Assembly (NCBI GenBank): GCA_033765235.1
Contig: JANRIG010000020.1
Coordinates: 56,105 to 120,104, forward strand
DNA: 64,000 nucleotides
Origin: Cytophagales bacterium
GTDB taxonomy: Bacteria > Bacteroidota > Bacteroidia > Cytophagales > UBA9547
Reading direction: 5' to 3'
How positions within the stretch are numbered: position 1 is the first letter of the stretch; each line of letters begins with the position of its first letter. The notes under the pieces are model-generated. The model worked only from the letters and a program-made list of their open reading frames with translations, had not been told where the DNA came from and ran no database searches. Made by a program: the position numbers and the translations under genes. Positions 1-18,003 of this stretch are shown here, piece after piece.

Positions 1-1
1 C

Positions 2-580
2 AGTGAACAGCTTCGCTTAACAATTGAAGTGGTTAAAGAACGACAGGAGAGTGAGTTGATTAATAATAAAGAGTATGGCTTAATCAGCAGCACACCCAAA
101 TCACAAATTATCAAAACCCGCACTGGTGCACCCACACCCGATGATTTGGATGAATTGTTGACCAAAGTGTGGAAACAACCAGGATTCTTTTTGTTACATC
201 CATTAACCGTTGCTGCTTTCGGAAGAGAGTGTACCCGTAGAGGCGTACCTCCTCCAACGGTATCTTTATTTGGTTCTCAATTTATCACTTGGAGAGGCAT
301 ACCTCTTATCCCGAGCGACAAAGTTCCGATAGCAAACGGCAAGTCTAAAATATTATTGCTCCGTACTGGAGAAGAACGCCAAGGTGTTGTAGGTTTGTAT
401 CAACCCAACCTTCCGGGGGAACAAACACCCGGTTTGTCGGTGAGATTTATGGGAATTAATGATAAGGCCATTGCATCTTACTTGGTTTCATTGTATTGTT
501 CCATCGCAGTGTTGGTGGATGATGCCATTGCGGTGTTGGATGATGTAGATATTACCAAATATCACGAATACAAATACTAG
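2..580 (+). CDS. srpI: Family 2A encapsulin shell protein (SrpI / major membrane protein I type), 5' part outside window
   Basis: Frame is open from base 2 (SEQLRLTIEVVKERQESELINNKEYGL...). Motifs GAPTPDDLDELLTKVWK, AAFGRECTRRGVPPPT, WRGIPLIPSDK and C-terminal YHEY are typical of family 2A shells; it lies directly upstream of a cargo desulfurase. Confidence 0.93.
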   Translation, partial: SEQLRLTIEVVKERQESELINNKEYGLISSTPKSQIIKTRTGAPTPDDLDELLTKVWKQPGFFLLHPLTVAAFGRECTRRGVPPPTVSLFGSQFITWRGIPLIPSDKVPIANGKSKILLLRTGEERQGVVGLYQPNLPGEQTPGLSVRFMGINDKAIASYLVSLYCSIAVLVDDAIAVLDDVDITKYHEYKY

Positions 581-594
581 ATTCTTAATTTCTT

Positions 595-629
595 AAGTAT
601 TCCTAAAGTCATACACTTTAGGAATATTT
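595..629 (+). promoter_or_regulatory. Intergenic stem-loop between encapsulin shell and cargo genes
   Basis: TATTCCTAAAGT-catac-ACTTTAGGAATA, a perfect 12-bp inverted repeat (598-626) extendable by three pairs. Confidence 0.6.
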
Positions 630-648
630 CCCAACTTTACAATTATTA

Positions 649-2559
649 ATGACAATGGATACCCCATCATTTTCAGATATACCGGATCTACAATCACTTG
701 AAAAATTAGCCAATCAGTTTTTTAAAAGTGTTCCTAATTCTGAGTCAAATTTACCAATTAATGAAAATGCAATTTCTGAGTCATATACAGCCTTAGATAG
801 CAAACCTGAATTTCCTCAAAATTTCAGCAAATCATCTTTTTCAAATCCTTTAGAATTTTCAAACAACCTTCCACAATCGGTAGCCGGAAGTGGCAAATCG
901 CCAAGCGTGAACGATCATCAAAATGATTTTAGCATCATTGACCCTCAAACGAGCTTGCCCGATCCACATTTTTATGACGGAAAAATACCGAAATCAGTTG
1001 CTGGTGGAGGCAAATCTCCTTCATTGGTAAGTAATTCAGGTGGTAGAATTGAAACTCCGAGTAAAGAACGAGCAGGTGTTACTCCATTTGCGTCTCCTTA
1101 CACAGGATTGCCTTTTGAAAGTATTCATTCGCACGACAAAGATCTACAGGAAGCATTGGGACAAATTTATTCATACGTTCCTACCTCACAAATACCCGTT
1201 GATTTACCGGTAGGCAGCAGTGATGCATCCTATTATTTCCTTGCCCATCCCAATCCTTTTCATGCGCTTGATAATATACATGTTGGGTCATTTCAACAAT
1301 CAAGAGCAACACACGGAATAACTAGTTTTGTAAAACCACCATTCGATATGAATTTGGTGAAAGCAGACTTTCCTATTCTCAAAGAAAAAGTGAACGGAAA
1401 ACCATTAATATGGCTCGACAATGCCGCCACAACCCAAAAACCCAAGCTGGTGATGGATAGAATAAATTATTTTTATGAACATGAAAATTCTAATATCCAT
1501 CGTGCCGCTCATGAACTAGCCGCACGTGCCACAGATGCTTATGAATCTGCAAGACAAAAAATACAACACTTTATCAATGCCAAATCAATCAATGAAATCA
1601 TATTTGTAAGAGGTACTACGGAAGGTATCAATTTGATAGCTCAAAGTTGGGGCGATCAGAATTTGAAAGAAGGCGATGAGATAATATTAAGTCATTTGGA
1701 ACATCATGCCAATATCGTTCCTTGGCAACTATTAGCTGCAAAAAAAGGTCTTAAACTAAGAGTTATTCCTGTTGATGATGATGGGCAAATTATATTAGAA
1801 GAATATGGTAAATTGCTAAATACCAAAACCAAATTAGTTTCTTTTACCCACGTTTCCAATGCCTTAGGCACGGTTACCCCTGCCAAAGCCATTATTGATA
1901 TGGCACATGCACAAGGGGCAAAAGTGGTATTGGATGGCGCTCAGTCTGTATCGCATATGCGTGTGGATGTGCAACATTTGAATCCTGATTTTTTTGTTTT
2001 CTCAGGTCATAAAGTATTCGGACCTACTGGTATAGGAGCTGTATATGGAAAAGAACATATATTGAATGAAACCCAACCTTGGCAAGGAGGAGGGAATATG
2101 ATTAAAGATGTAACCTTCGAACACACCGAATATCACAATGCTCCTGGCCGCTTTGAAGCAGGAACAGGCAACATTGCCGATGCAGTTGGGTTAGGTGCCG
2201 CATTGGATTATGTTGGCAAAATAGGCATAGATTTCATTAATCAATACGAGCACGCATTATTAGTATATGCAACTCATTTGCTCAAACAAGTGCCTGGTCT
2301 TAAGCTTATTGGTACCGCTCACGACAAAGCAAGCGTGCTTTCATTTGTGTTAGATGGATATAGCAATGATGAGGTAGGAAAGGCTTTAAATCAAGAAGCA
2401 ATAGCTGTTAGAACCGGTCACCATTGCGCACAACCTATTTTGAGAAGATTTGGTTTGGAAAGCACAGTAAGACCTTCCTTGGCTTTTTACAACACCTGTG
2501 GCGATGTAGATGTATTAGTTAGCACCCTTCACCGCTTGGCTGAAACGAAAAAAAGATAG
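649..2559 (+). CDS. Family 2A encapsulin cargo cysteine desulfurase (SufS-like, group II) with long disordered N-terminal cargo-loading domain
   Basis: About 230 aa Ser/Pro-rich N-terminus with LEKLANQFF and YYFL motifs, followed by WLDNAATTQKP, the PLP-lysine motif FSGHK and catalytic RTGHHCAQP. Confidence 0.93.
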   Translation: MTMDTPSFSDIPDLQSLEKLANQFFKSVPNSESNLPINENAISESYTALDSKPEFPQNFSKSSFSNPLEFSNNLPQSVAGSGKSPSVNDHQNDFSIIDPQTSLPDPHFYDGKIPKSVAGGGKSPSLVSNSGGRIETPSKERAGVTPFASPYTGLPFESIHSHDKDLQEALGQIYSYVPTSQIPVDLPVGSSDASYYFLAHPNPFHALDNIHVGSFQQSRATHGITSFVKPPFDMNLVKADFPILKEKVNGKPLIWLDNAATTQKPKLVMDRINYFYEHENSNIHRAAHELAARATDAYESARQKIQHFINAKSINEIIFVRGTTEGINLIAQSWGDQNLKEGDEIILSHLEHHANIVPWQLLAAKKGLKLRVIPVDDDGQIILEEYGKLLNTKTKLVSFTHVSNALGTVTPAKAIIDMAHAQGAKVVLDGAQSVSHMRVDVQHLNPDFFVFSGHKVFGPTGIGAVYGKEHILNETQPWQGGGNMIKDVTFEHTEYHNAPGRFEAGTGNIADAVGLGAALDYVGKIGIDFINQYEHALLVYATHLLKQVPGLKLIGTAHDKASVLSFVLDGYSNDEVGKALNQEAIAVRTGHHCAQPILRRFGLESTVRPSLAFYNTCGDVDVLVSTLHRLAETKKR

Positions 2560-2568
2560 TTTTAAAAA

Positions 2569-3417
2569 ATGAGAAATGAGATAAACCAGCGGTTCATTCA
2601 TTTTTTATACAAAAATCATCATGAAGAATGGGTGCCTACGCCTTTTCCTGCCGATGCCATCAAGTGGCTTAAGGATTTGTTAGAATATCTTTTTCCAAAT
2701 ACTTTTTTACCAAATATTTCACTTTATGAAGGGTTGTTGAAAAAAAACCAAATTGATATTGAAAATATTTTGCTGAGCTATCTCAATCATAAAAATTTTG
2801 AAATTGAAAAAACCGTAGATGATTTTTATGCTTCTCTGGAACAGATATATATCAACTTAAGAAATGATGCAGAAGCTACGGTAAACAGCGACCCTGCCGC
2901 TACGAGCATACATGAAGTAATTGTGTCATATCCGGGTTTTTTTGCAACTGCGGTATACCGTATAGCACACAAGCTAGCAAACTTAGGCGTTCCCATATTA
3001 CCCAGAATACTTTGCGAATATGCCCATGCAAATACAGGAATTGATATTCACCCCAATGCAGTTATTGGTGTACCTTTTGTGATTGACCACGGTACAGGGG
3101 TTGTAATTGGCGAAACCAGTATTATTGGTAACAATGTCACTATTTATCAAGGGGTTACATTAGGGGCATTGCATGTAGAAAAAGGACTTTCTGATACCAA
3201 ACGACATCCAACAGTTGGCGACAATGTCATTATTTATGCAAGAACTACTATTTTGGGGGGCAATACCGTTATTGGCGATAATTACATTATTGGAGGAAGT
3301 GTATTTTTAACCAAAAGTATTGAAGCCAATTCCAATGTGTTTAATACCCACCAACTGCGCATCAGTTCCAAAGACCGCAAAGTGCAAGATTACGATTTGA
3401 CGATTCAGGCTTCGTAG
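2569..3417 (+). CDS. cysE: Serine O-acetyltransferase (EpsC/CysE type)
   Basis: DPAA, YPGF, TGIDIHP, IDHGTGVVIGET, YQGVTLGA and KRHPT motifs with hexapeptide repeats. Confidence 0.9.
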   Translation: MRNEINQRFIHFLYKNHHEEWVPTPFPADAIKWLKDLLEYLFPNTFLPNISLYEGLLKKNQIDIENILLSYLNHKNFEIEKTVDDFYASLEQIYINLRNDAEATVNSDPAATSIHEVIVSYPGFFATAVYRIAHKLANLGVPILPRILCEYAHANTGIDIHPNAVIGVPFVIDHGTGVVIGETSIIGNNVTIYQGVTLGALHVEKGLSDTKRHPTVGDNVIIYARTTILGGNTVIGDNYIIGGSVFLTKSIEANSNVFNTHQLRISSKDRKVQDYDLTIQAS

Positions 3418-3649
3418 TGCGTTTATACTTAATTTAACGCAAGTACCCATTTTTTATTCTAGCTGTTAACAATTTTGTTTTAAATATATCAAGTCAACCT
3501 TGGCATAATATTGCAAGTTTAAACCAGATTTACATCCGGTTATATTCATATTTATAAGTAATCTTGTTAAAATAACAATTTGACAACTCATAAAAAAACA
3601 GAATATTATTCTGATATAAATAAATATTTTAAAAAATATAAAATTTTAT

Positions 3650-3679
3650 TTTGTATATAAAATAAAAATGCTATATTTG
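3650..3679 (+). promoter_or_regulatory. Bacteroidota housekeeping-sigma promoter (-33 TTTG / -7 TAnnTTTG) for the NTF2-sulfatase unit
   Basis: TTTG at 3650-3653, 18-nt spacer, TATATTTG at 3672-3679. Confidence 0.55.
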
Positions 3680-3681
3680 TA

Positions 3682-3765
3682 ATGCCTAATTGAAATACTT
3701 TATACGCCACCCAATAAAGTTTAAGAATATACTCACGCCACCTGCTATATTACTATTTTGGGCAT
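3682..3765 (+). ncRNA. Putative structured 5' leader RNA: basal stem enclosing two hairpins with identical ACGCCACC loop motifs
   Basis: P1 ATGCCTAA(3682-89)/TTGGGCAT(3758-65); P2 ACTTTAT(3697-3703)/ATAAAGT(3714-20); P3 AATATA(3726-31)/TATATT(3746-51); ACGCCACC at 3704-11 and 3735-42. Confidence 0.45.
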
Positions 3766-3786
3766 AATTGTACTTAACTTTTAAAG

Positions 3787-3876
3787 ATGCTCAAATATTC
3801 TTTATTCAGTCAGTACTTCATTATTATCTGTTGTTTCATTAAAAAATTTATTTGGTTTAGACCATTTTATAAATAG
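3787..3876 (+). CDS. Putative leader peptide (29 aa) with tandem Cys codons: MLKYSLFSQYFIIICCFIKKFIWFRPFYK
   Basis: ATG 3787 with A at -3, TGT-TGT at 3829-3834, TAG 3874-3876; lies between the predicted promoter and the sulfatase unit. Confidence 0.35.
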   Translation: MLKYSLFSQYFIIICCFIKKFIWFRPFYK

Positions 3877-3979
3877 AAAAAGTGCTTAGCTATTACAGGC
3901 TCTGTACTAATAATACATGATTTATGCAACCTCAAAACACAACTTATTTAGTTAATAATTAATTGTAAACTCAAATTTT

Positions 3980-4435
3980 ATGACAAAAATCATTCTTCAT
4001 TTTTCAATATTTATTTTGCTGACTTCTTGTGTAAGGGAAAGTAATACCAACCAAGAGTTAGAAGAAAGCAACAAAAAAGTGATCCTACAATTTTACCAAA
4101 AAGCTTTCAACGAGTTAGATACCAATGCCGTTGATGAATTTATTTCAGAACCTTACATTCAGCACAATCCTAATGTGCCCAATGGCAAAAAGCCAGTGAA
4201 AGAGTTGATAAGTTGGCTTGCCACCAATCAACCAAAAGGTGTAAACGAGTTTAAACGAATAATAGCAGACTCAGATTATGTGGTACTCCATGTTCGATAT
4301 GTACCCAATGATTCGGCAAATGTAGAACTGGCCTGTGTAGATATTTTTAAACTTAAAAACGGAAAGATAACCGAACACTGGGATGTTCAGCAAAATGTAC
4401 CAGCTAAGTCAGCAAATACAAATACTATGTTTTAA
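3980..4435 (+). CDS. NTF2-like / SnoaL-like lipoprotein
   Basis: Lipobox LTSC; YIQHNP and DIFKLKNGKITEHWDV motifs. Confidence 0.8.
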   Translation: MTKIILHFSIFILLTSCVRESNTNQELEESNKKVILQFYQKAFNELDTNAVDEFISEPYIQHNPNVPNGKKPVKELISWLATNQPKGVNEFKRIIADSDYVVLHVRYVPNDSANVELACVDIFKLKNGKITEHWDVQQNVPAKSANTNTMF

Positions 4436-4471
4436 AATCAATTTCAATTAATTAATTAATCTGTACCAAAA

Positions 4472-6793
4472 ATGAAAAAACTTAATCTATTCAGTGCCTC
4501 CTTGCTTGGGGTGAGTACGCTCTTTGCACAATACGACCCCGTCCAACCCTGGAATGGCAAAAACGGCAAAATTTTAGCCGAATCTACCCCTTACAAAGCC
4601 GAGCCAGCGGTAAAAACACCACAAAATGCTCCTAATGTGGTCTGGATATTGCTAGATGATATAGGATATGGTGTAATCTCTCCTTTTGGAGGAGCTGTAA
4701 ACACCCCTAATTTGCAAAAACTGGCTGACGAAGGCTTGCGATACACCAATTTTCACACTACAGCTATTTGTTCGCCCACTCGTGCCTCTTTGCTTTCAGG
4801 TCGAAATCAACACTCGGCACACATGGGCTTGTTTCCTGAAACCGCCATTGATTTTCCAGGCTACGATGCCAAAATTCCTTTCGAAAAAGCACTTATTTCG
4901 GAAGTATTACGTGAAAATGGCTACAACACTTTTGCAGTAGGCAAATGGCATTTGACTCCTGTAAATGAAGCCACACAAGCTGGTCCGTTCAACCGTTGGC
5001 CTACAGGTAGGGGATTTGATAAATACTTCGGCTTTCCTTACGGACAAGTCTCACAATGGGAACCCTACCTTTGGGAAGGAACGGATGTGGTAGAACCTGA
5101 TACCAAAAATCCGGTACACTTCACCACCTTGATTACTAATAAAGCGATCAAATACATTTCTAATCAAAAATCAGTTAATCCTGACAAACCTTTCTTTTTG
5201 TATTACACACCAGGGGCAGGACACGCTCCGCATCACGTAGACAAAGAATGGATTGAAAAATACAAAGGCAAGTTTGACAATGGCTGGGATGTGTATCGCA
5301 ATGAAACACTTGAGCGTCAAAAAAAGTTAGGCATAGTACCTCAAAATGTACAGTTACCCTTAAAAACTCCGAATGTAAAACCTTGGGATTCGCTTTCGGT
5401 AGATGAAAAGAAAGTATACGCACGTTTTTTTGAAGTATATGCCGGATTTGTAGAACATACTGACTTTGAAATAGGACGCTTAATCAATCACTTGAAAGAA
5501 ATTGGCCAGTACGAAAACACCATTTTTGCTGTGGTGGTAGGCGACAACGGTTGCTCTAAAGAAGGTACTGCCAATGGGGTAATCAATGGATATATTCAGA
5601 ATTTGCCTGAGAAAGAGCGTATTGCAGAGCTGTTGAAAAACATAGACAATATAGGAAATATCAACACGCATACCAATTTCCCCTTTGGCTGGGCATCGGC
5701 CGGAAACACCCCTTTTCGCTACCTCAAGCAAGATGCCAATGCCGAAGGCGGTACTCGCAACCCGTTGATATTGAGCTGGCCAAAAGGTATTAAAGACAAA
5801 GGTACACTTCGCCATCAGTATTCGCACGTAAACAGCCTTTGGCAAACCACTGTGGATTTGACAGGCTCCAAAGTGCCAGAATACATCAATGGCTACAAAC
5901 AAGAACCTACTGAAGGTACAAGTTTGGCTTATACCATCGACAACCCCACTGCCCCAGGCAAACATACCGTTCAATATTTTGAAATAACAGGCTCACGCGC
6001 CATATACAAAGACGGCTGGAAAGCCTCAGTATATCACAAGCAAGGTGCGCCTTTTGAAACAGACGTGTGGGAACTGTATGACTTAAACACTGACTTTAAT
6101 GAGCGAGTGAACTTGGCATCTAAAAACCCTGCAAAATTGAAAGAGCTTCAAGATCAGTTTGATACAGAAGCCAAAAAGTATAACGTATATCCGCTCAAAG
6201 ATTGGAGTGCCTCGTCTTTTGGTACCAACAAAAACAGTGCCTATGTGGGCAGAAAACAAGTAGTATTATACCCAGGATTATCTCAAACATTTGGTTTGGC
6301 AGGTCCTACTTTTTGGAATGCAAGTTTTACAATTATCAGCGATGTAGAAATTTCAAATACCAACAACGAAGGGGTATTGTTTGCCTTGGGAGGTAGATTT
6401 GGGGGCTTGAGTTTGTTTATCAAAGACCATAAATTTCAATTGGCGCATAATTTGGGAACCAAAATATTCCATGTAGAATCCTCCAAAACCATACCTGCGG
6501 GTAAAGTACAATTGAAGTATGAATTTAATTTTACTGCCACACCTAAGCCACGCGGCTCATCAGTTTTTGCCCTTGACCCTAAAGAAGCCTTAGAGCCTGC
6601 AGGAAATGAAATTTTGTATATAAATGGTGAGAAGGTAGCAGAATCGCCCATTATACGTGCTCATGGTTATATATTTGGCTATGATGAAGGATTGGATATA
6701 GGTCAAGACAATGCCAGCCCTGTTTCAGATAAATACAAAACGCCTTTTGCATTTACAGGAAGTTTAAAAAAAGTAACAATTGATTTTAAATAA
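4472..6793 (+). CDS. Secreted arylsulfatase (Cys-type, formylglycine-dependent, AtsA-like long form)
   Basis: Signal peptide; PNVVWILLDD, CSPTRASLLSGR (CxPxR), GKWHL, HAPH and DNG motifs; C-terminal beta-sandwich extension. Confidence 0.93.
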   Translation: MKKLNLFSASLLGVSTLFAQYDPVQPWNGKNGKILAESTPYKAEPAVKTPQNAPNVVWILLDDIGYGVISPFGGAVNTPNLQKLADEGLRYTNFHTTAICSPTRASLLSGRNQHSAHMGLFPETAIDFPGYDAKIPFEKALISEVLRENGYNTFAVGKWHLTPVNEATQAGPFNRWPTGRGFDKYFGFPYGQVSQWEPYLWEGTDVVEPDTKNPVHFTTLITNKAIKYISNQKSVNPDKPFFLYYTPGAGHAPHHVDKEWIEKYKGKFDNGWDVYRNETLERQKKLGIVPQNVQLPLKTPNVKPWDSLSVDEKKVYARFFEVYAGFVEHTDFEIGRLINHLKEIGQYENTIFAVVVGDNGCSKEGTANGVINGYIQNLPEKERIAELLKNIDNIGNINTHTNFPFGWASAGNTPFRYLKQDANAEGGTRNPLILSWPKGIKDKGTLRHQYSHVNSLWQTTVDLTGSKVPEYINGYKQEPTEGTSLAYTIDNPTAPGKHTVQYFEITGSRAIYKDGWKASVYHKQGAPFETDVWELYDLNTDFNERVNLASKNPAKLKELQDQFDTEAKKYNVYPLKDWSASSFGTNKNSAYVGRKQVVLYPGLSQTFGLAGPTFWNASFTIISDVEISNTNNEGVLFALGGRFGGLSLFIKDHKFQLAHNLGTKIFHVESSKTIPAGKVQLKYEFNFTATPKPRGSSVFALDPKEALEPAGNEILYINGEKVAESPIIRAHGYIFGYDEGLDIGQDNASPVSDKYKTPFAFTGSLKKVTIDFK

Positions 6794-6800
6794 ATACCAA

Positions 6801-6842
6801 TTCCATACCTACTAAGTTTTTTAAAACTTGGCAGGTATGGAA
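6801..6842. repeat. 20-bp-arm palindrome resembling Bacteroidota REP-like elements
   Basis: TTCCATACCTACTAAGTTTT-tt-AAAACTTGGCAGGTATGGAA (one G-U, one mismatch), 8 nt after the sulfatase stop and 5 nt before the tRNA. Confidence 0.6.
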
Positions 6843-6847
6843 CTAAA

Positions 6848-6919
6848 GTCCCCTTGACCGAGTGGTTAGGTAACTGTCTGCAAAACAGTGTACATCGGTT
6901 CGAATCCGATAGGAGGACT
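6848..6919 (+). tRNA. tRNA-Cys (GCA) with an extra, bulged nucleotide in the 3' strand of the acceptor stem; CCA not encoded
   Basis: D-arm ACC-GAGTGGTTA-GGT; anticodon arm ACTGT-CTGCAAA-ACAGT; T-arm ATCGG-TTCGAAT-CCGAT; acceptor GTCCCCT / AGG(A)GGAC; discriminator T6919. Confidence 0.85.
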
Positions 6920-6940
6920 CTAACATTTTACTTAAACTTT

Positions 6941-7348
6941 ATGATTATGACAAAGATTAACACTAAATTTAGTTTTCCTGATTATTTGATAAACCTCATG
7001 GTAGGTTTGGTATTTCTTTCAGAAGGAATACAAAAGTGGATACTCCCCAACGAAAGAGGAGTAGGACGATTTGCTAAGATAGGAATTCCCTATCCTGAGT
7101 TTACCGGTTATTTTGTAGGAGTTACAGAAATAGTATGTGGTTTACTTGTACTGGCCACATTTAAAATCAGGTATTCAATTATTCCTCTACTCATCATTAT
7201 TGTGGTAGCCATCATTAGCTCCAAAATCATACCCTTTCCCGAAAAAGGATTGTGGGAAACCCTACATGCTTCAAGAAATGATTTTTGTATGCTCTTAGGG
7301 CTTATATACTTGGCATATAATGCCTTTTCAGTAAAAAAAATTGCTTAA
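6941..7348 (+). CDS. DoxX family membrane protein
   Basis: VGLVFLSEGIQK, GRFAKIGIP and FVGVTEIVCG motifs, about 4 TM segments. ATG 6941 (or 6947) is preferred over the TTG at 6854, which lies inside the tRNA. Confidence 0.85.
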   Translation: MIMTKINTKFSFPDYLINLMVGLVFLSEGIQKWILPNERGVGRFAKIGIPYPEFTGYFVGVTEIVCGLLVLATFKIRYSIIPLLIIIVVAIISSKIIPFPEKGLWETLHASRNDFCMLLGLIYLAYNAFSVKKIA

Positions 7349-7482
7349 TCAAATATAAATTCTGCACCAAAGTACTTAATGATTACATTCTTATATTAGG
7401 TAAGCTCCTTGCTATTGATTGATTATTAAAATATATGGCTACTAAACGTCTTAATACCATACAATCATATCATAAATGAATT

Positions 7483-7490
7483 TATATTTG
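7483..7490 (+). promoter_or_regulatory. -7 promoter element for the TonB-dependent receptor gene
   Basis: TATATTTG ending 35 nt upstream of ATG 7525. Confidence 0.45.
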
Positions 7491-7524
7491 TCGAAAATTT
7501 AAGTTGTTGAGCATCATTACAATA

Positions 7525-9969
7525 ATGAAAATCATATCAATATTTCTAATCTGTTTTGCTTCATCCCAAGTTTTTTCTCAAAGCCAAATAAAAGGAAAAA
7601 TCACTGATACATTAAGCTCCAAACCACTGGAATATGCCATAGTGAGTATTTTTAATACAAGTGATGATAAACTTGTTAACGGTAAACTCACTGACTCAAC
7701 AGGTACTTTTGTGTTTGACAAAATAGATGAGGGCAATTATTATTTGAAAATAGATCTGATTGGCTACCGAACTTCATACGTTAGGGGCATATTGATTGAT
7801 AAATCAAAAATGGTAAATCTGGGAAACATTAATATGAATGTATCATCTGCCATGCTCAATGAGGTAGAAGTTAATGCTGTGAAAGACCCAAATCAGGTGA
7901 AAATAGATAAGCAAACCTACAAGGCCGACCAATTTGAGTCTGCCAAAGGAGGCACAGCTATAGATGTATTGAAAAATCTGCCTTCTTTTACTATAAATGC
8001 GGAGGGCGATATACGACTGCGAGGCTCCGGTGGTATTTTGGTTTTAATCAATGGCAAACCTGTAAATGCTGATATCCAAACGGTTCTAAATCAAATACCT
8101 GCCAACTCTATCGAAAACATAGAACTCATCACGGCTCCTACCGCCAAATATGATGCTGATGGAAAATCAGGTATTATCAATATTACTACAAAAAAAGGCA
8201 CTACAGATGGGCTCACATTTATGGTAAATGGTCAATATGGTTTGCCAAGCGTAGACATGTACAACAACAAAGAACAACCCAAAAGATACGGTACTGATAT
8301 CACCCTCAACTATATCAAAAACAAATGGGACTTTACTTTTGGTGCAGGCTATTTGCAAAATGACATACAAGGGCTCAGAGACGGAGATGTAAATACTACT
8401 TTCAACAGCCGCTATACCACTTTTCCATCTATAGGCGAGCGAAGTTTTGACCGCAAAACCTACTCTGTAAGAGCCTCTATTACATATAATGTGAACAAAA
8501 ACAATAGCTTTAACTTTGCGGTATATCATGGGCAAAGGCAGCAGTTTCGCTTGGCCGATATTGATTACACCACTACCCGTTACATAAACGGATTGCCTGT
8601 AAGCAATTATCAATATTTCAATAACAATCTTGTCAAAAAGCAAGGCGAATTTTCGCTTGTAAATCTAGATTATACCTACACTTTTGCCAACAAATCTACC
8701 CTTAATCTTTCTGGATTGTATGAATATGCTTTTCTTGATGGATTTACTAAGAACAAAGATTTTGCTTTGGGAACCAATACTAACCCTATCAATGATATTC
8801 TAAATACAGGTACAAGCCCAATACATGGGCTGAGAGCCAAAACAGATTACACTATTAATATTGGCAAAGGCAAATTGGAAAGTGGCTACCAAATTCGTTA
8901 CCAAACCCAAACAGGAAGCTATGTATATAAAGATGTAATATTGAATTATACGACTGTAAACCAAACTGTTGATGCATATAGTGCAGACATACGCATCGAA
9001 AATCTCATCCATGGACTTTATTCTCAATATTCGGGCAAATTAAAAAAATTGGAATACACAATTGGTATGCGCTACGAACATGCACAGAGGCTCTTTACTT
9101 CAAGCAAAGGAGATAATTTTCCACTCACCTTAAACAATCTGTTTCCATCTGCCAACTTACTCTATGGCCTTAAAGAAAACGTAAAACTCAAAGGTGGTTT
9201 CAGCCGCAGGGTACAACGGTCTACCAACAATGAACTCAATCCTTATCCTGAGCGCGAACATGCCGAAACACTTGAACGTGGCGACCCTGATATCAAACCA
9301 GAATTTGTCAATCTTTCGGAATTGGGCCTCATATACGAATATAAAAAAGGCTCCGTGTTTTTTACTTTTTACAATCAATATATTGAAAACGTAGTAAACC
9401 GTGTGAACAATGTGTACAACGACACCATATTGAACAGAATATATACCAATGCCGGCAATGCTGCTATATGGGGCATAGAAGCAGGGTTTAACTATAATCC
9501 CATTAAATGGTGGAAAATATACATAGGAGGCAATATATACAATTATAATATCAGAGGCAGTTTGTTTGACAATGCAGTAACTGTAAAAAATAGTGGGTTG
9601 GCTTATTCCTTCAATACCAACCAAAATTTTCAACTCTTAAACACATTGAGTTTACAATTAAATATGAATTACCTGTCATTGAGACCTACAGCCATAGGTG
9701 AAGATTCTCGGTTTTTAAGTCCAAATATTTCTGTGAAAAAAACATTTTTAGGCGGTAAATTATCTGCTATGCTTCAATGGCAAAATATTGGATTAGGTAT
9801 ATTGCCCAGCAATGAACAGCGCATTACCACACGAGGTGCCAATTTTTATACTACCACCAATTATATCCAAGAAAAAGACGTGTTATGGATACATTTGAGC
9901 TACAACTTCAAGCAGTCCAATAAGAAAGTGAAATTGCCCGGCAGTGAATTTGGAGAAAAGGAATTTTGA
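7525..9969 (+). CDS. TonB-dependent receptor / outer-membrane beta-barrel protein with N-terminal carboxypeptidase-regulatory-like domain
   Basis: Signal peptide from ATG 7525; plug motif IENIELITAPTAKYDADGKSGIINITTKK; amphipathic beta-strands; C-terminal FGEKEF. Confidence 0.88.
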   Translation: MKIISIFLICFASSQVFSQSQIKGKITDTLSSKPLEYAIVSIFNTSDDKLVNGKLTDSTGTFVFDKIDEGNYYLKIDLIGYRTSYVRGILIDKSKMVNLGNINMNVSSAMLNEVEVNAVKDPNQVKIDKQTYKADQFESAKGGTAIDVLKNLPSFTINAEGDIRLRGSGGILVLINGKPVNADIQTVLNQIPANSIENIELITAPTAKYDADGKSGIINITTKKGTTDGLTFMVNGQYGLPSVDMYNNKEQPKRYGTDITLNYIKNKWDFTFGAGYLQNDIQGLRDGDVNTTFNSRYTTFPSIGERSFDRKTYSVRASITYNVNKNNSFNFAVYHGQRQQFRLADIDYTTTRYINGLPVSNYQYFNNNLVKKQGEFSLVNLDYTYTFANKSTLNLSGLYEYAFLDGFTKNKDFALGTNTNPINDILNTGTSPIHGLRAKTDYTINIGKGKLESGYQIRYQTQTGSYVYKDVILNYTTVNQTVDAYSADIRIENLIHGLYSQYSGKLKKLEYTIGMRYEHAQRLFTSSKGDNFPLTLNNLFPSANLLYGLKENVKLKGGFSRRVQRSTNNELNPYPEREHAETLERGDPDIKPEFVNLSELGLIYEYKKGSVFFTFYNQYIENVVNRVNNVYNDTILNRIYTNAGNAAIWGIEAGFNYNPIKWWKIYIGGNIYNYNIRGSLFDNAVTVKNSGLAYSFNTNQNFQLLNTLSLQLNMNYLSLRPTAIGEDSRFLSPNISVKKTFLGGKLSAMLQWQNIGLGILPSNEQRITTRGANFYTTTNYIQEKDVLWIHLSYNFKQSNKKVKLPGSEFGEKEF

Positions 9970-9999
9970 TTACAATATTTTAACAAGAATAGAAAACCT

Positions 10000-10782
10000 A
10001 TGAAAAAAGCAAGTTTTAATCTTAATATATTAGACGTATATATATTCATATTTTCCATTTCAATTATTCTTTTTTGTTCTGTAAATAATGCAATTGCCCA
10101 AAAAAATGTCACAAACCGCACCCAAAGTTGGGTTGGATACTTTAATCAAACCAGAATTTCTAACAAATTTGGCTTTTGGCTCGATGTTCATTTCAGAAAC
10201 TTAGATATTGCTCATCCACACCAAACCTTGGTAAGGCCTGCATTTATTTTTTATATCAACGATAATTTCAGACTCAATGCAGGATATGCCTATGTCTATA
10301 ACTTTGCACCTGAAGGCCGAAATTCTTCATTTCAAGAACATCGCCCGTGGCAGCAACTTTGGTGGCGCACCAAATACCCGGGTTTTGTAACCACCCAGTG
10401 GCTCCGTGCCGAGCAGCGTTTTGTAGAAAATGTGGTAAATGACCAACTCACAGGCGATTTTACATTTAATCACAGATTTAGGTATAATTTGTTTTTACAA
10501 GTACCTTTAATAGGTAAGGATATGAAAGCAAAAACACCTTATTTTGCCCTACAAAATGAAATATTCATCAATGCCGGCAAAAATATTGTTTACAATGTAT
10601 TTGACCAAAATAGGTTTTTTGTAGGGTTTGGATATTACTTCACCGACCACTTGCATATACAGCTGGGCTATATGAATATCTTTCAGCAAAGACCCTCAGG
10701 AAATGAATTTTACAACAATGATTGTATCAGGTTATTTGCATTTCATACACTTGATTTTCGCAAAAAAGAAGAAACACATTAA
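10000..10782 (+). CDS. DUF2490 family outer-membrane beta-barrel protein
   Basis: EHRPWQQ, RxEQRF, RFRY and FDQNRFFVGFGY motifs. Confidence 0.8.
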   Translation: MKKASFNLNILDVYIFIFSISIILFCSVNNAIAQKNVTNRTQSWVGYFNQTRISNKFGFWLDVHFRNLDIAHPHQTLVRPAFIFYINDNFRLNAGYAYVYNFAPEGRNSSFQEHRPWQQLWWRTKYPGFVTTQWLRAEQRFVENVVNDQLTGDFTFNHRFRYNLFLQVPLIGKDMKAKTPYFALQNEIFINAGKNIVYNVFDQNRFFVGFGYYFTDHLHIQLGYMNIFQQRPSGNEFYNNDCIRLFAFHTLDFRKKEETH

Positions 10783-10793
10783 GGAATCTAACA

Positions 10794-10828
10794 AAAAACC
10801 TATACTATTATTGGTACTATGGGTTTTT
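10794..10828 (+). terminator. Probable intrinsic terminator after the DUF2490 gene
   Basis: AAAAACCTATA ... TATGGGTTTTT stem ending in a T run. Confidence 0.5.
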
Positions 10829-11014
10829 ATAAATTTTTGAATGGAAAAGAAAAAGAGAAAACAGAGAAAAATATGATGAAAAATATAAAAGTACCCTAAA
10901 GATTAATACTTCTGATTGTTACTTCTCTATAGATAATCAAAAAACTATTTATAATAGCTTTAACCCAAAATACAACTTATTCCATAATATTGCACCTCAA
11001 AAATATACATTCAA

Positions 11015-12487
11015 ATGGCAAAACTTCCAAAACGAAGTGAAGACTACCCCATGTGGTACAACGAACTTGTAAAATCAGCAGACCTGGCCGAAAACTCAGC
11101 CGTGAGAGGCTGTATGGTCATAAAACCATACGGATACTCCATCTGGGAAAAAATGCAGGCTGCACTCGACCAAATGTTCAAAGATACCGGGCATACCAAT
11201 GCCTATTTTCCACTCTTTATTCCCAAGTCATACCTCAGCAAGGAAGCAAGCCATGTGGAGGGTTTTGCCAAAGAGTGTGCCGTAGTCACCCACTATCGCC
11301 TCAAAAATGCCCCCGACGGCAGTGGGGTCATTGTAGACCCTGATGCTAAGCTCGAAGAAGAACTCATCGTAAGACCCACCTCCGAAACAGTGATTTGGAG
11401 CACCTACAAAAACTGGATACAATCATACCGCGACCTTCCCTTGCTCATAAACCAATGGGCCAATGTGGTACGCTGGGAAATGCGCACCCGCCTTTTTTTA
11501 CGCACAGCAGAGTTTCTATGGCAGGAAGGCCATACTGCACATGCCACTGCACAAGAAGCCATAGAAGAAACACTCAAAATGCTTGATGTATATACCCACT
11601 TTGCCGAAAAATATATGGCAATGCCGGTGATAAGAGGTGTGAAAACCCCCAATGAACGGTTTGCAGGGGCGGTAGACACCTACTGTATAGAAGCCCTTAT
11701 GCAAGATGGAAAAGCTCTACAAGCAGGTACATCTCACTTTTTAGGGCAAAATTTTGCCAAAGCATTTGATGTAAAATTCCTCAACAAAGACAACAAACAA
11801 GATTTTGTATGGGGCACATCTTGGGGTGTGAGCACACGCCTGATGGGTGCACTCATCATGGCACACTCCGATGACGATGGACTGATTTTACCTCCAAAAC
11901 TTGCACCAATTCAGGTAGTTATAATCCCTATATATAAAACTGACGAACAAAAATCTAATATCGAAGCCGTAGCAGATACACTATGCAATAGTTTAAAAAA
12001 TCAAGGAATTAGTGTAAAATATGACCAAAGAGATACCCACACACCTGGCTACAAATTTGCTGATTATGAGCTCAAAGGCATACCTCTGCGAATAGCCATA
12101 GGGCCAAGGGATATAGAAAATAGTACCATAGAGCTTGCACGCCGCGATACAAAAGAAAAAATGGTGGTGAGTATAGACAATGCTGTACAAATTATATCCA
12201 ACTTATTAATTGATATTCAGCAAAATATATACAATAAAGCACTTGCCTACCAAAAAGCCAATACCACCATCACCAATACTTGGGATGAATTTAAAGAGGT
12301 AATACTCAATAAAGGAGGCTTTGCACTCGCTCATTGGGACGGCACCACAGATACCGAAGAAAAAATAAAACAAGAAACCAAAGCCACCATTCGTTGCATA
12401 CCCTTAGCAAATGTTATCGAATCGGGCAAATGTATATACTCAGGAAACCCATCTACACAAAGAGTATTATTTGCAATAAATTATTGA
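11015..12487 (+). CDS. proS: Proline--tRNA ligase (archaeal/eukaryotic-like type)
   Basis: [41 protein letters not shown] motifs; C-terminal Tyr. Confidence 0.97.
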
Positions 12488-12507
12488 ATATGACAAATTG
12501 AGATTAA

Positions 12508-12541
12508 TATTGATTAACTTTACACAAAAATGTAATCAATA
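12508..12541. promoter_or_regulatory. Inverted repeat, candidate autoregulatory operator of the DeoR regulator
   Basis: TATTGATTA-N16-TAATCAATA, perfect 9-bp arms ending 3 nt before the ATG. Confidence 0.45.
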
Positions 12542-12544
12542 GTT

Positions 12545-13309
12545 ATGACACAAGTACATCGTCATAGGTTAATATTGGAGCGCATTCATTCTCACGGAGC
12601 TATCAGTGTAGATGAAGCCTGCGAAATGTACAACACCTCACCTGCCACCATACGAAGAGATTTTAACCAAATAGTATCCGATGGAAAAGCCGACAAAACG
12701 TGGGGAGGCATTATAAAAAAATCAGATGAATTGTACACCATCAATGGAATGCTGCCTGTATCATACCGCAAAGAACAAAATATTACTGAAAAAATACTTA
12801 TAGCACAAAAAGCAGCCTCACTCATTCAAGATGGCGATGTAGTCATGATAGATGGTGGCACTACTACCTACTATATGGCACCCTATATTGCCGCAAAAAA
12901 AATACGTATCATTACAAATTCTATCATTATAGCCATGCAAATTGATATTGAGCGTAAACAAAGCAATGGTGCAGAAGTATTTCTTACAGGCGGCATGCTG
13001 TATCCTGAGTCTGGGCTACTCATAGGGCCTCAAACCAATATTAGTATCAAAAATTATTATGCTAAATATACGTTTTTATCTGCCGGAGCCATAGATGCAG
13101 ATGGCCCTTCAAACTCTAACCAAATGGTAGTAGAAACCGAAAAAGCCATGATACAAAACTGCAAAAATGTAGTACTACTGGCAGACCATAGCAAATTTGG
13201 TCAAAAACACATGTGTAGCGTATGCGAATGGAGCGATATTACTTTTCTAATATCAAACACATATGACGGTACAGAAAAAATTGTACCATCATATGTAAAT
13301 AAAATCTGA
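12545..13309 (+). CDS. DeoR/GlpR family transcriptional regulator
   Basis: HTH SPATIRRDF; DGGTTT, ITNS and LADHSKFG motifs of the DeoRC sensor domain. Confidence 0.93.
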   Translation: MTQVHRHRLILERIHSHGAISVDEACEMYNTSPATIRRDFNQIVSDGKADKTWGGIIKKSDELYTINGMLPVSYRKEQNITEKILIAQKAASLIQDGDVVMIDGGTTTYYMAPYIAAKKIRIITNSIIIAMQIDIERKQSNGAEVFLTGGMLYPESGLLIGPQTNISIKNYYAKYTFLSAGAIDADGPSNSNQMVVETEKAMIQNCKNVVLLADHSKFGQKHMCSVCEWSDITFLISNTYDGTEKIVPSYVNKI

Positions 13310-13357
13310 ATGTGAATGAATAACAAAAATTAGATTAGAAATACAAATCTTTAGGTA

Positions 13358-14341
13358 TTAAAACTCCCAAAGATTGTGTTCATACTCCATGATATCTACC
13401 GAAGCCTTTTCAGAGCCGTATCTGCCGGCTTTAGGATCTCCACCATATGTATCTACTATGAGCTCATCATAAGGATTTGACACTTTGATGATAAAAGATG
13501 AAAATAATCGTAAGTCAAAAGCATCCACAAAGTTTTTGTGTTCGGCATCATTCTCACGGTTAAACCATATCGCTCTACCATCTTTTCTAAATTGCTCACA
13601 CAAATCTTTGTATTTTATCACAGCTACAGGTTGGTTAAATCCTCGAGGGTTTATGGCAGCCGGTATATACAGGGTAAAAGCTATGATATCATAATACATA
13701 CGTGAACGTTTTTTGTCAAATATCACGTCTTCTTTTATATCTATCAATGTGAGCAACTTAGGATCTATATCCCTTGATTGTGATAACAATTGCTTTTTTT
13801 CCTCTTCAGACATACCTGTAGTATCAGGCATTATATTGTTAGGGTCTACCAAGTTGGCTTTGAACTGTTCTTCAGTAAGTGATTTACCTTCATCCAAAGA
13901 GTCTGTAGCATAAGCTTTAAGTTTGCCCATTTTCAAATATTCTATAATGAGTACAGGCAACTCCTTGCTAGATGACATGAAGCCTTTATTTTGCTTTTCT
14001 TTCATGTCAAGCCTACGCCATACAGTTTTTCTGAACATTATATCCTTATCTAAAATAGGGTGTATTGAGTATTTATTGTATTTATCAGGAGAAACAACTC
14101 TTTTGATTTTGGCTTCATATTCAGCCAATTTTCTAGTTCTTTCTTCTTCTGCAGCTGCTTTCTTTTTGTTTTCTTCCTCTAATGCAGCTGCTTTAGCAGC
14201 ATCTTGCTCAGCTTTTAATTGCTCCGCAGATTTTACAGGTGTTGCCGGTGCAGCGGGAACAGCCTTTTTTTTGCCTTTTTGCGCGTATCCTGCAGTGGCA
14301 AATATGGCTAATACGATAATAAATAAATACTTTCTGTTCAT
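13358..14341 (-). CDS. gldN: Gliding motility / T9SS protein GldN (PorN)
   Basis: KTVWRRLD, KEDVIFDKKRSRMYYDI, RLFSSFIIK, EYEHNLWEF; last gene of gldKLMN. Confidence 0.93.
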   Translation of the reverse strand: MNRKYLFIIVLAIFATAGYAQKGKKKAVPAAPATPVKSAEQLKAEQDAAKAAALEEENKKKAAAEEERTRKLAEYEAKIKRVVSPDKYNKYSIHPILDKDIMFRKTVWRRLDMKEKQNKGFMSSSKELPVLIIEYLKMGKLKAYATDSLDEGKSLTEEQFKANLVDPNNIMPDTTGMSEEEKKQLLSQSRDIDPKLLTLIDIKEDVIFDKKRSRMYYDIIAFTLYIPAAINPRGFNQPVAVIKYKDLCEQFRKDGRAIWFNRENDAEHKNFVDAFDLRLFSSFIIKVSNPYDELIVDTYGGDPKAGRYGSEKASVDIMEYEHNLWEF

Positions 14342-16908: not shown

Positions 16909-18003
16909 TTAAAATTCCTGACCAGATGATCGACCTAAGTAGGTCATAACACATCTAAATCCGATAAAAGATTTGGCAGTATCAGAATATTCGAAGGTAC
17001 GTGAGCCTAATTCAAGGAAATATGCTACATCTTTCCATGATCCTCCGCGTACTAATTTTCTTTTTTCGTTTTCATTATAATAAGTTGGATTCATATCCCA
17101 AACCAATGGAACTGAGGCTTCATAAAAAGCGTCTTCGCACCACTCTGATACGTTTCCTGACATATCATAAAGACCATAGTCATTAGAAAAATAAGATCCG
17201 GTAGGTGCAGTATACATAAATCCATCGTCGTAATAGTTGCCACGACCCGGCTTTAAGTTTGCAAGCATACAGCCTTTGGAGTTACGAATATAAGGGCCTC
17301 CCCAAGGATATTTGGTCATGTCTCTGCCTCCACGTCCGGCATATTCCCATTCTGCTTCTGACGGGAGTCTGAATTTAGGGTTAGCAAAAAGATTGAGACC
17401 ACTTAGTTCTGTACGCCACTCATTCATGTAACGTGTGCGCCAATCGCAAAACATGCGAGCCGATGACCAATCAACACCTACAACAGGATATTCGTCAAAA
17501 GCAGGGTGGTAGAAATAATATTCCATCATAGGGTCTCCCATGTGGTGTGCGAAATCTCTAACCCAAACTGTGGTGTCAGGGTAAAGCTCTCGCATGATAA
17601 ATTCATCTCCTTTGCTTTTGACAGTGGAGTCAAGATAGGCTTGTGTATTTTTCCAATCAGGGTACTCGTCGGGGCGAAGAAGGAAGTATATAAATTGGCG
17701 ATATTCGTTGTTAGTAACCTCAGTTTCATCCATATAGAATCCACCGATAGTGATTTGTTTGTTAAAATTAATTTGCGTAGCAGGCACGTCTTGGTCTGCT
17801 TGACCCATGTGGAAAGTACCTGATGGGCATACTACCATGCCATAAGGTGTACTTTGTGACCAACCTACTCTGTCAGGCACTCCAATTAAGTCACCTCCTC
17901 CTGTGTCGGTAGAACTTGCACCGCCGCAAGATTGAATAATAATAATGGCAAATAAGAGCGCTACTAAGTTAAGCGAATACTTATTAACAAGTTGTTTTAT
18001 CAT
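16909..18003 (-). CDS. gldK: Gliding motility / T9SS lipoprotein GldK (PorK), FGE-sulfatase fold
   Basis: Lipobox IQSC; DETEVTNNEY, YPDTTVW, RLPSEAEWEYA, RGGSWKD, IGFRCV; located between porP and gldL. Confidence 0.93.
   Translation of the reverse strand: MIKQLVNKYSLNLVALLFAIIIIQSCGGASSTDTGGGDLIGVPDRVGWSQSTPYGMVVCPSGTFHMGQADQDVPATQINFNKQITIGGFYMDETEVTNNEYRQFIYFLLRPDEYPDWKNTQAYLDSTVKSKGDEFIMRELYPDTTVWVRDFAHHMGDPMMEYYFYHPAFDEYPVVGVDWSSARMFCDWRTRYMNEWRTELSGLNLFANPKFRLPSEAEWEYAGRGGRDMTKYPWGGPYIRNSKGCMLANLKPGRGNYYDDGFMYTAPTGSYFSNDYGLYDMSGNVSEWCEDAFYEASVPLVWDMNPTYYNENEKRKLVRGGSWKDVAYFLELGSRTFEYSDTAKSFIGFRCVMTYLGRSSGQEF

Follow-up and report, generated by a model that had tools for sequence, protein, structure and literature searches.

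From what source do bacteria that carry family 2A encapsulins draw their sulfur during starvation, and how is the encapsulin system wired into the rest of the cell? Both questions are addressed by a gene cluster that overlaps the left end of a 64,000-nucleotide stretch of a Cytophagales genome, hereafter the window (GenBank assembly GCA_033765235.1, contig JANRIG010000020.1; G000:C8:56105-120104 in our numbering, where G000 is the genome of the window, Gnnn stands for the genomes and Lnnn for the loci or contigs that were compared). Positions 2-10828 of the window hold, on the plus strand, eight co-directional protein-coding genes and one tRNA gene; a preliminary description of this DNA, the gene calls of which are all confirmed here, interpreted them as an integrated sulfur island built around an encapsulin. 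The co-directional cluster as a whole spans ~23 kb (G000:C8:43,986-66,886), and the window contains its right-hand part; the remainder extends ~12 kb upstream, beyond the window start, and the genes still further upstream are unrelated. On balance, the modules of this cluster most likely serve one task, namely obtaining, assimilating and buffering scarce sulfur, and one of them includes an extra, structurally odd tRNA-Cys that recurs in sulfur-gene neighbourhoods of other Bacteroidota.

The link to sulfur drawn in the preliminary description is reinforced by the position of the sulfatases. A tblastn search with the two sulfatases of the cluster detects three sulfatase loci in the entire 3.36-Mb genome: two flank the shell operon, each no more than 5 kb away, and the third sits amid carbohydrate and purine genes. 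The upstream sulfatase, of 512 aa, carries CSPSR at residue 85 and belongs to a run of genes that encode, in order, a PBP-like protein, a formylglycine-generating enzyme (FGE), SusC, SusD, the sulfatase itself, FA_hydroxylase, DUF4395 and YeiH (PF03601), followed by the shell. The downstream sulfatase (window 4472-6793, plus strand), of 773 aa, combines the PF00884 domain (196.5 bits), CSPTR at residue 100, i.e. the C/S-x-P-x-R motif, and a signal with an FGE in the same cluster (PF03781, 210.7 bits), which makes a maturation enzyme for sulfatases available; it thus has the features of a secreted S1 formylglycine sulfatase, and its C-terminal ~200 aa lack a family assignment. Both sulfatases have N-terminal sequences that, read by eye, are signal-like. 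Directly upstream of the 773-aa sulfatase is the gene for a 151-aa SnoaL-like lipoprotein (3980-4435, plus strand; PF07366 and PF12680, ~54 bits), which was not named in the preliminary description; its N-terminus, again read by eye, shows a signal and a lipobox-like sequence, and L011 has a homologue with 38% identity at a distance of 2.3 kb from its cargo gene.

Could such a gene set serve glycan catabolism instead? The combination of SusC/SusD, secreted S1 sulfatases and an FGE is common to this cluster and to the polysaccharide utilization loci for sulfated glycans. However, although the SusC/SusD pair expected of such a locus is present, no glycoside hydrolase or polysaccharide lyase family is represented among the genes of the cluster or of its counterparts in G195 and G229; rhodanese, thioredoxin, YeiH, TauE, CysK and serine O-acetyltransferase (SAT) are encountered in their place. 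The absence of glycoside hydrolases from the sulfatase clusters favours a role in sulfur metabolism over glycan catabolism. Furthermore, PAPS_reduct and NIR_SIR genes as well as a CysK-SAT pair are present elsewhere in G000, so that sulfate derived from esters could be assimilated. A precedent exists in Proteobacteria, in which sulfate starvation involves scavenging genes such as the arylsulfatase gene ats, ssu and tau, with sulfatases that free ester sulfate co-regulated with cysteine synthesis. Unlike these systems, the present cluster employs SusC/SusD and TonB-receptor uptake, encodes an FGE and is linked to a storage compartment and a tRNA gene.

The storage compartment in question is encoded between the two sulfatases. 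The window starts within the shell gene and includes the C-terminal 192 aa of its product (2-580, plus strand; PF19307, 270 bits); the full gene, of 306 aa (G000:C8:55764-56684), starts 341 nt before the window. The full protein scores 530.2 bits against NF041162 (encap_f2a), above the cut-off of 380, and the fragment alone remains below it, at 356.6 bits, because the gene is truncated by the window start. The sole Pfam match of the shell is SrpI-like (residues 57-299), and the cNMP-binding domain, which discriminates between families 2A and 2B, was not found in it by Pfam. Next comes the encapsulin cargo, a cysteine desulfurase (649-2559, plus strand; NF041166, 890 bits, cut-off 800), in which Aminotran_5 occupies residues 254-623 of 636, leaving an N-terminal extension of ~250 aa before the SufS-like domain. 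The co-directional SAT gene (2569-3417, plus strand) is adjacent, starting 10 nt after the cargo stop codon. Its product contains SATase_N and hexapeptide-repeat domains and scores 152.2 bits against TIGR01172 (cut-off 210.65) and 137.9 bits against the EpsC model (cut-off 150); it is thus a member of the SAT family that falls below the equivalog thresholds, and it is 63-73% identical to the SATs found beside other Bacteroidota shells. That the shell protein forms an icosahedral compartment around the desulfurase is suggested by its 82-90% identity to other members and by the family models.

This core is already known. The order shell-desulfurase-SAT is the published Enc-CD-AT operon type, one of the four types described for family 2A, which consist of Enc and CD with or without a rhodanese and with or without a SAT; in the parts of these papers that we consulted, rhodanese and SAT are the only accessory genes described (Andreas and Giessen 2021; Benisch et al. 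2024; Nichols et al. 2021; PMC10836720, PMC8346489, PMC8049743). The shell, the cargo with a long N-terminal extension and the adjacent SAT match SrpI/CyD of Synechococcus elongatus and the Rhd-AT-Enc-CD operon of Acinetobacter baumannii, and the available accounts of the Synechococcus and Acinetobacter systems report induction by sulfur starvation (PMC10836720, PMC8346489). In contrast to the published operons, the operon in the window, and those in a minority of Bacteroidota loci, are surrounded by SusCD, sulfatase, YeiH, DUF4395, TonB-dependent receptor (TBDR)-DUF2490 and tRNA-Cys genes. The word 'sulfatase' does not occur in the main texts of PMC10836720, PMC8346489 and PMC8049743, the supplementary neighbourhood tables being outside this scope, and tRNA is mentioned 0, 0 and 1 times, respectively, without being tied to encapsulin operons. 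A different extension was observed in a metagenome-assembled genome of Treponema (L016:5866-8689), where a family 2A shell is immediately preceded by genes for CysK, a JAB peptidase, ThiS and a ThiF-rhodanese fusion.

Is the extended arrangement a peculiarity of this genome? We examined ~110 non-redundant shell/cargo loci, with related loci among them: 14 from a contig search, those of G011, G036, G020, G114, G143 and G195, those of 14 order-level genomes and those on 80 metagenome contigs (75 clusters). Wherever a contig spanned both, shell and cargo occur together, frequently with SAT. In G195, a genome from a different family, the cluster starts with FA_hydroxylase (62% identity), rhodanese, thioredoxin, a sulfatase-512-like protein (43%) and SusCD, continues with two sulfatase-773-like proteins (48-55%, by two methods), YeiH (55%) and a second SusCD, and ends with an arylsulfotransferase (ASST), a sulfatase, CysK, the shell and the desulfurase. 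These two G195 copies beside the shell (55% and 52%) are the closest sulfatase-773 homologues in a class-level sample of 400 genomes, 16 of which carry the family (1/3 shell-positive against 15/397 shell-negative genomes, a comparison that involves three shell-positive genomes only). In the metagenome loci L110/L112, a sulfatase, an RND efflux pair (HlyD, AcrB), a barrel outer-membrane protein directly upstream of the shell (60% identical to that of the window), the shell, the desulfurase and SAT face, on the opposite strand, tRNA-Cys, 1-Cys peroxiredoxin, MetY (a Cys/Met PLP enzyme) and YeiH (58%), with a sulfatase-773 orthologue (48%) adjoining the opposite-strand genes. The sulfatase module also exists in the absence of a shell, in G229 and G284, together with rhodanese-thioredoxin, YeiH, TauE or FGE; in G229, SusCD is followed in turn by a sulfatase, FA_hydroxylase, rhodanese-thioredoxin, a second sulfatase, YeiH and a third sulfatase, and TauE is close by. 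Among the 75 non-redundant metagenome clusters, we counted SAT in 27, SusC-like genes in 10, DUF4395 in 9, YeiH in 6, FA_hydroxylase in 6, a sulfatase in 2 and the barrel in 2; DUF4395 or YeiH is present in 14.

Thus, the extension of the core is a minority state that is recurrent and not unique to the window, and the identities of the genes, their clustering and their recurrence are matters of observation. The fact that orthologous modules recur in different orders and combinations argues for selection for co-function or co-regulation rather than for a frozen accident. The neighbourhood survey that the preliminary description had called for therefore supports its integrated island in part: sulfatases cluster with the shell and orthologous sets are found beside other shells (G195, L110/L112 and G788, with tRNA-Cys in 9 of the ~110 loci), whereas most loci consist of the core only. 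What can be put forward is a plausible sulfur-scavenging island, recurrent but in the minority, around a known core. An ABC transporter beside the shell in G143 was considered as a sulfate transporter and not counted, as its binding protein is PstS-like (PBP_like_2).

The component of the cluster that was least to be anticipated is a cysteine tRNA. G000 has 39 tRNA genes, among which tRNA-Cys(GCA) is found twice: a canonical copy on contig C12 and the divergent extra copy in the window (6848-6920, plus strand; ARAGORN; Rfam tRNA score 45 bits, threshold 29), 60% identical to each other. According to the ARAGORN fold and the alignment, the window copy possesses U33 and U73. Its acceptor stem comprises 7 Watson-Crick pairs but is interrupted in the 3' strand, where a single A bulges out between nucleotides three and four; this A is apparent in the minimum free energy (MFE) fold and takes up an insert column when the sequences are aligned to the structure, so that the uninterrupted 7-bp acceptor stem of canonical tRNA-Cys is not found here; ARAGORN also offers an alternative fold with an 8-bp acceptor stem and a C/A mismatch. 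A bulged A occupies the same position in L112, in L089b and, probably, in L093, which is truncated; the stems around it differ by compensatory pairs. A second irregularity, an unpaired A1/G72, is shared by G020, G788 and L069, the only sequences in which pair 1:72 fails. The sharing of the bulge and of the mismatch, together with compensatory changes in the stems, points to selection rather than decay. In an alignment of 16 related sequences fitted to the structure model, the cloverleaf is retained, with 97.1% of the cells paired and changes on both sides in 15 of 20 pairs, values that none of 500 shuffles reached. Canonical tRNA-Cys copies are 85-92% alike between genomes, whereas the linked copies are 60-88%, and mostly 60-76%, identical to the canonical ones; likewise, most linked copies score 45-53 bits on the Rfam tRNA model, compared with 55-60 bits for canonical copies.

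So how tightly is this tRNA associated with encapsulins? A tRNA-Cys gene is present in the shell flanks of 9 of the ~110 loci: the window, G020, G788 (L007), G143, L069, L081, L089 (two copies), L110/L112 and L093 (partial, at a contig end); about four lineages are represented. In G020, which belongs to the same family as the window genome, the tRNA gene is co-directional with the shell and ends 48 nt before its start codon; in G788 it is flanked by a TBDR and DUF2490 and located 1.5 kb upstream of the shell; in G143 it follows an Rrf2 gene. In the 80 metagenome loci (921 kb), ARAGORN identifies 6 genes for tRNA-Cys, compared with 9 for all other tRNAs together. The association is real, if not overwhelming, at about 1 in 500 by a rough binomial estimate made by hand. 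The linked copy is an addition to the canonical one, which is found elsewhere in the 4 genomes of 4 that could be checked (G000, G788, G143 and G020); the canonical tRNA-Cys is likewise present in G036 and G535, which have a shell but no linked copy. Two of the genomes and loci compared hold further oddities: in L089 (8602-11420), a tRNA-Cys, a PIG-L-family deacetylase (BshB-like), a 341-aa protein without a Pfam family, the bulged-A tRNA-Cys and Rrf2 are arrayed such that two cysteine tRNAs bracket a possible thiol-biosynthesis pair, and a third, odd tRNA-Cys of G143 resides within a run of unusual tRNAs (Gln, Phe, Asp; L159, G143:C55).

A broader pattern emerges from a scan that took no account of encapsulins, in which 151 genomes of the order were searched with a tRNA-Cys covariance model. 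One match of at least 89 bits is present in almost all of them, and among the matches listed, beyond which there are 99 weaker ones, divergent copies (74-88 bits) appear only in G000, G501, G057, G543 and G528, being in G528 the best match of the genome; G055 and G521 have identical multiple copies, which in G055 include four in tandem (G055:C29:97290-97848). No shell was found in G501, G057, G543 and G528 in the order-sample search. In G501, the tRNA leads SusC (58%), SusD (55%), a sulfatase and a sulfatase-512 orthologue (55%), and is divergent from Rrf2, ChrB/AraC, a TBDR, DUF2490 (47%) and a ChrA-type transporter. In G057, a TBDR, tRNA-Cys and DUF2490 are on one strand in the same order as in G788; in G543, TauE, 1-Cys peroxiredoxin, tRNA-Cys, a flavoprotein and a TBDR form a series; in G528, 1-Cys peroxiredoxin precedes tRNA-Cys. 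The tRNAs themselves are still more deviant, with U73 absent in G543, G528 and G057 and U33 absent as well in G543 and G528. By comparison, the neighbours of canonical tRNA-Cys genes (5 of 5 in a control) are housekeeping genes such as those for S1, FolB, GlnRS and DapF, and none belongs to sulfur metabolism, although an OMP_b-brl_3 barrel is found beside the canonical copy of G788. We conclude from these contexts that the extra tRNA-Cys accompanies a recurrent group of genes for sulfur uptake and thiols, and that the encapsulin operon is one member of this set. In the window, tRNA-Cys, the barrel and DUF2490 make up the local variant of a 'TBDR - tRNA-Cys - DUF2490' unit that is met again in G788, G057 and G501; DUF2490 homologues (36-47%) that follow a TBDR with tRNA-Cys nearby are those of L007, L183 and L184. 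A tie between the tRNA and the sulfatase-773 family as such was considered and discarded, given that 0 of 19 shell-less sulfatase-773 loci carry a tRNA-Cys. The ChrA-type gene of G501 (L183:15106-16437), a chromate/sulfate-analogue transporter after TBDR-DUF2490 beside the extra tRNA-Cys, deserves mention on its own. A ChrA homologue, srpC, is sulfur-regulated and encoded on the Synechococcus plasmid that carries srpI.

What could an additional cysteine tRNA do in such company? We considered an isoacceptor for use in starvation, a tRNA mimic that senses cysteine charging and a carrier for a non-ribosomal reaction; the irregularities at the acceptor end, along with the loss of U33 and U73 in relatives, make us lean away from an ordinary elongator. 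Only one cysteinyl-tRNA synthetase (CysRS) was found in the genome, i.e. no paralogue dedicated to the odd tRNA. The closest published parallel consists of the selC* tRNA-Cys and allo-tRNAs, which, as described in the part of that report available to us (Mukai et al. 2017, PMC5389517), are additional cysteine tRNAs that exist alongside a canonical copy, contain a bulged A and deviate from the canonical acceptor branch. The differences are nevertheless substantial, selC* having an 8/4 branch, a long variable arm and bulge 51a in the T-stem (PMC5389517), compared with 7/5, a 4-nt variable loop and a 3'-acceptor bulge in the window tRNA; moreover, selC* comes from anaerobes with selenocysteine genes, some with their own CysRS (PMC5389517), and the window tRNA from Bacteroidota, beside sulfur genes. 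An assignment of the window tRNA to selC* is ruled out by its 5-bp T-stem, its 4-nt variable loop and its sulfur-gene context. We tentatively raise the possibility, which we ourselves regard as doubtful, that Bacteroidota of the Cytophagales/Chitinophagales type possess a family of non-canonical tRNA-Cys-like molecules that are a regulated part of the sulfur-limitation gene set and act as a sensor of cysteine status or a dedicated carrier rather than as ordinary elongators. This family would come in at least two conserved shapes, one with the 3'-acceptor bulged A and one with the A1/G72 mismatch, plus more deviant forms without U33 or U73, and its genes would be built, in the same direction, into operons for the encapsulin, sulfur uptake and cysteine synthesis. 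If these molecules were sensors, the charging or processing of the tRNA mimic could set the expression of flanking genes, the role that T-boxes play in Firmicutes.

The putative workings of the cluster can be outlined in four modules. Module 1 (SusC/SusD, FGE, 512-aa sulfatase, FA_hydroxylase, DUF4395 and YeiH) would be in charge of uptake and desulfation of sulfate esters. In module 2, the family 2A operon, SAT would feed cysteine synthesis and the encapsulated desulfurase would deposit sulfur in the shell. Module 3 would consist of SnoaL and the 773-aa sulfatase. Module 4 would comprise the extra tRNA-Cys and the three genes that follow it: DoxX (~6941-7348, plus strand; PF07681, 48.3 bits, above the gathering cut-off of 23.6), which starts 20 nt after the tRNA; a TonB-dependent-receptor-like outer-membrane barrel (7504-9969, plus strand; CarboxypepD_reg, Plug and OMP_b-brl_3; PF14905, 230.9 bits); and DUF2490 (10000-10782, plus strand; PF10677, 162 bits), which is probably an outer-membrane beta-barrel, as the name of its Atlas cluster ('outer membrane beta-barrel') also hints. 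What is transported and in which direction, the joint induction and the part played by the tRNA are inferred, as follows. SusCD and the TonB-type barrel with DUF2490 might bring organosulfur compounds across the outer membrane; the FGE-matured sulfatases would release sulfate, which would be assimilated by the CysD/CysH/sulfite-reductase-like genes located elsewhere and, with SAT, converted to cysteine; YeiH and DoxX might handle sulfite or thiosulfate-type by-products. The modules would be jointly induced by sulfur limitation, and the extra tRNA-Cys would be expressed with them.

Several observations weigh against such a joint function. All 14 order-level genomes contain shell, desulfurase and SAT only, in the same order, with the extension absent, and most of the 75 metagenome clusters lack any accessory gene; the counts of positive loci, for their part, overstate independence because related loci are kin. 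The TBDRs that accompany DUF2490 in L007, L183 and L184 are not orthologous to the window barrel. DoxX, put forward in the preliminary description as a co-occurring partner of family 2A shells, drops out, as no homologue was found in any related locus examined. YeiH has been presented as a sulfite-resistance exporter, in the portion of that preprint seen by us (bioRxiv 10.1101/2025.07.27.662810), and such a protein would suit detoxification no less than uptake. Judging from the sequence, the modules are probably transcribed separately: an AT-rich spacer of 562 nt (3418-3979) separates SAT from SnoaL and contains a Bacteroidetes-type promoter-like TTTG-N18-TATATTTG at 3650-3679, and a strong 20-bp hairpin (inverted repeat at 6801-6842, plus strand, MFE -22.3 kcal/mol) lies between the sulfatase stop codon and the tRNA, so that co-transcription of the two halves is unlikely. 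This hairpin lacks a U-run and ends 5 nt before tRNA-Cys; it could be a terminator of the sulfatase gene or a signal for tRNA processing. Finally, no Rrf2/CymR-type regulator scores above the cut-off in G000, no shared regulator was identified, and a palindrome found upstream of many other shells, discussed below, is absent from the intergenic regions of the island.

The cysteine-sensing control that the preliminary description assumed accordingly finds no conventional agent: an Rfam scan of window positions 1-13000 at E<=1 returns the tRNA only, with no riboswitch in the 562-nt spacer, and there is no Rrf2 above the cut-off in this genome. If the tRNA were indeed a sensor or a carrier, its own gene would provide such control. 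At the level of DNA, a candidate cis-element shared by both halves, if real, is the GC-rich ACGCCACC, a string chosen post hoc that occurs 36 times in the genome and 5 times outside long open reading frames, 3 of these 5 being in this locus, at 3704-3711 and 3735-3742 in the spacer ahead of the SnoaL-sulfatase genes and at G000:C8:55678-55685, 79-86 nt upstream of the shell start. Each of the three copies is flanked by a TATAC / TATATTA-like sequence, and weaker (G/C)CCACC sites are located upstream of SusC and of the 512-aa sulfatase. A second string, TTTTAAAAAAT, with 39 occurrences in the genome and 4 within 4.1 kb of the encapsulin operon (G000:C8:55626, 55748, 58664, which is window 2560, and 59731, which is window 3627), was rejected as an operator: it too was chosen post hoc, two of the four local copies are positioned just before or overlap the shell and SAT start codons, and a translation-start context is more likely. 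Upstream of other shells, within 220 nt, we noticed the palindrome (G)TCTAY-N5-11-RTAGA(C), in many cases immediately followed by a TAnnTTTG-like -7 box (examples are L076, L069, L090, L027, L071 and L122); its core, CTAY-N5-11-RTAG, precedes 33 of 106 distinct other shells, compared with a mean of 10.2 and a maximum of 24 in mononucleotide shuffles. Rrf2 genes are found beside the shells of L005, L008, G143 and L089, and beside the extra tRNA-Cys of the shell-less G501. The palindrome may be the operator of a repressor.

Which other explanations could account for the same genes? The one that survives best, rather unlikely though we consider it to be, is an island for the homeostasis of reactive sulfur and thiol redox state under persulfide, sulfite or thiosulfate stress, to which the sulfatases would be incidental; the shell would lock up sulfur, YeiH or TauE would export sulfite, and DoxX and peroxiredoxins would protect thiols. 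The neighbours of shells and extra tRNA-Cys genes give this explanation some substance, with 1-Cys peroxiredoxin in L017, G143, L112, G543 and G528 and TauE in G011, L007, L069 and G543, in addition to YeiH, Rrf2, rhodanese and thioredoxin, and with the reported ability of YeiH to confer resistance to sulfite, as far as that source was available (bioRxiv 10.1101/2025.07.27.662810). However, FGE, SusCD, the two secreted sulfatases and their orthologues in G195, G229, G501 and L112 are left unexplained, the SAT and CysK neighbours point to cysteine synthesis, and the published family 2A systems, in the sections covered here, respond to sulfur starvation. The two explanations also overlap, since in Pseudomonas sulfur starvation itself induces antioxidant genes, according to the part of that study consulted (PMC12581299).

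Chance juxtaposition of a three-gene encapsulin operon with an unrelated outer-membrane/sulfatase cluster and a spare tRNA appears improbable to us. It would readily account for the prevalence of loci with the core only, for the apparent division of the modules into separate transcription units and for the surroundings of proS, where nothing is conserved across 19 same-family loci, from which it follows that gene order in the family is fluid. It is less compatible with the facts that two of the three sulfatase loci are next to the shell, that the closest homologues of the 773-aa sulfatase among 400 genomes sit beside the G195 shell, that tRNA-Cys accounts for 6 of the 15 tRNA genes in 921 kb of shell flanks and that the tRNA scan met the same gene families, whereas canonical tRNA-Cys genes did not. 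The weakest candidate, a mobile encapsulin island that used tRNA-Cys as its integration site, the odd stem being a recombination scar or the mark of a decaying, functionless duplicate, can be dismissed as highly improbable: the patchiness of the shell (2 of 21 other same-family genomes, 18 of 400 in the order sample, 14 of these in one family, and 3 of 400 in the class sample above the cut-off), its 82-90% identity across families, the transposases adjoining the G011 operon and the lower Rfam scores of the linked tRNAs would all suit it, but neither an integrase in the examined flanks of any tRNA-bearing locus, nor a 3'-end direct repeat or a repeat of any other part of the tRNA elsewhere in the genome with up to 4 mismatches was found, the tetranucleotide distance reaches only the 80th-87th percentile of 5-kb windows, so that the composition of the region is not alien, and both the bulged A and the A1/G72 mismatch are conserved, with compensatory stem pairs around the bulge.

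The right-hand boundary of the cluster proposed in the preliminary description, a terminator before proS, fits the sequence: a terminator-like hairpin with a U-run is located at 10794-10836 (plus strand; RNAfold -10.7 kcal/mol), with proS 3' of it at 11015-12487, although a consensus terminator scan does not include this hairpin among its predictions. Farther 3' of proS (window 12545-14341) are a DeoR-family regulator and, on the opposite strand, gldN/porN of the type IX secretion ring, and a second, fragmentary FGE-like gene (32% identity over 191 aa) lies at G000:C8:73055-73606 (window ~16951-17502).

As the encapsulin core is known, what is new is the recurrent link of sulfur-gene neighbourhoods to a non-canonical tRNA-Cys; a full-text literature search retrieved no paper on a bacterial tRNA-Cys linked to sulfur starvation, and, as far as that search reaches, the recurrence of the extra tRNA-Cys in such neighbourhoods is apparently unpublished. 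For Bacteroidota with family 2A encapsulins, the joint function in sulfur acquisition that we favour suggests a supply line that leads from SusCD/TonB-type uptake through FGE-matured sulfatases to cysteine synthesis and storage in the shell. The structurally odd extra tRNA-Cys matters more, because it provides a cheap handle on how these bacteria sense or cope with cysteine scarcity, and, if it turned out to act as a sensor or as a carrier for a special purpose, regulation through tRNA would be known in a novel form distinct from T-boxes.

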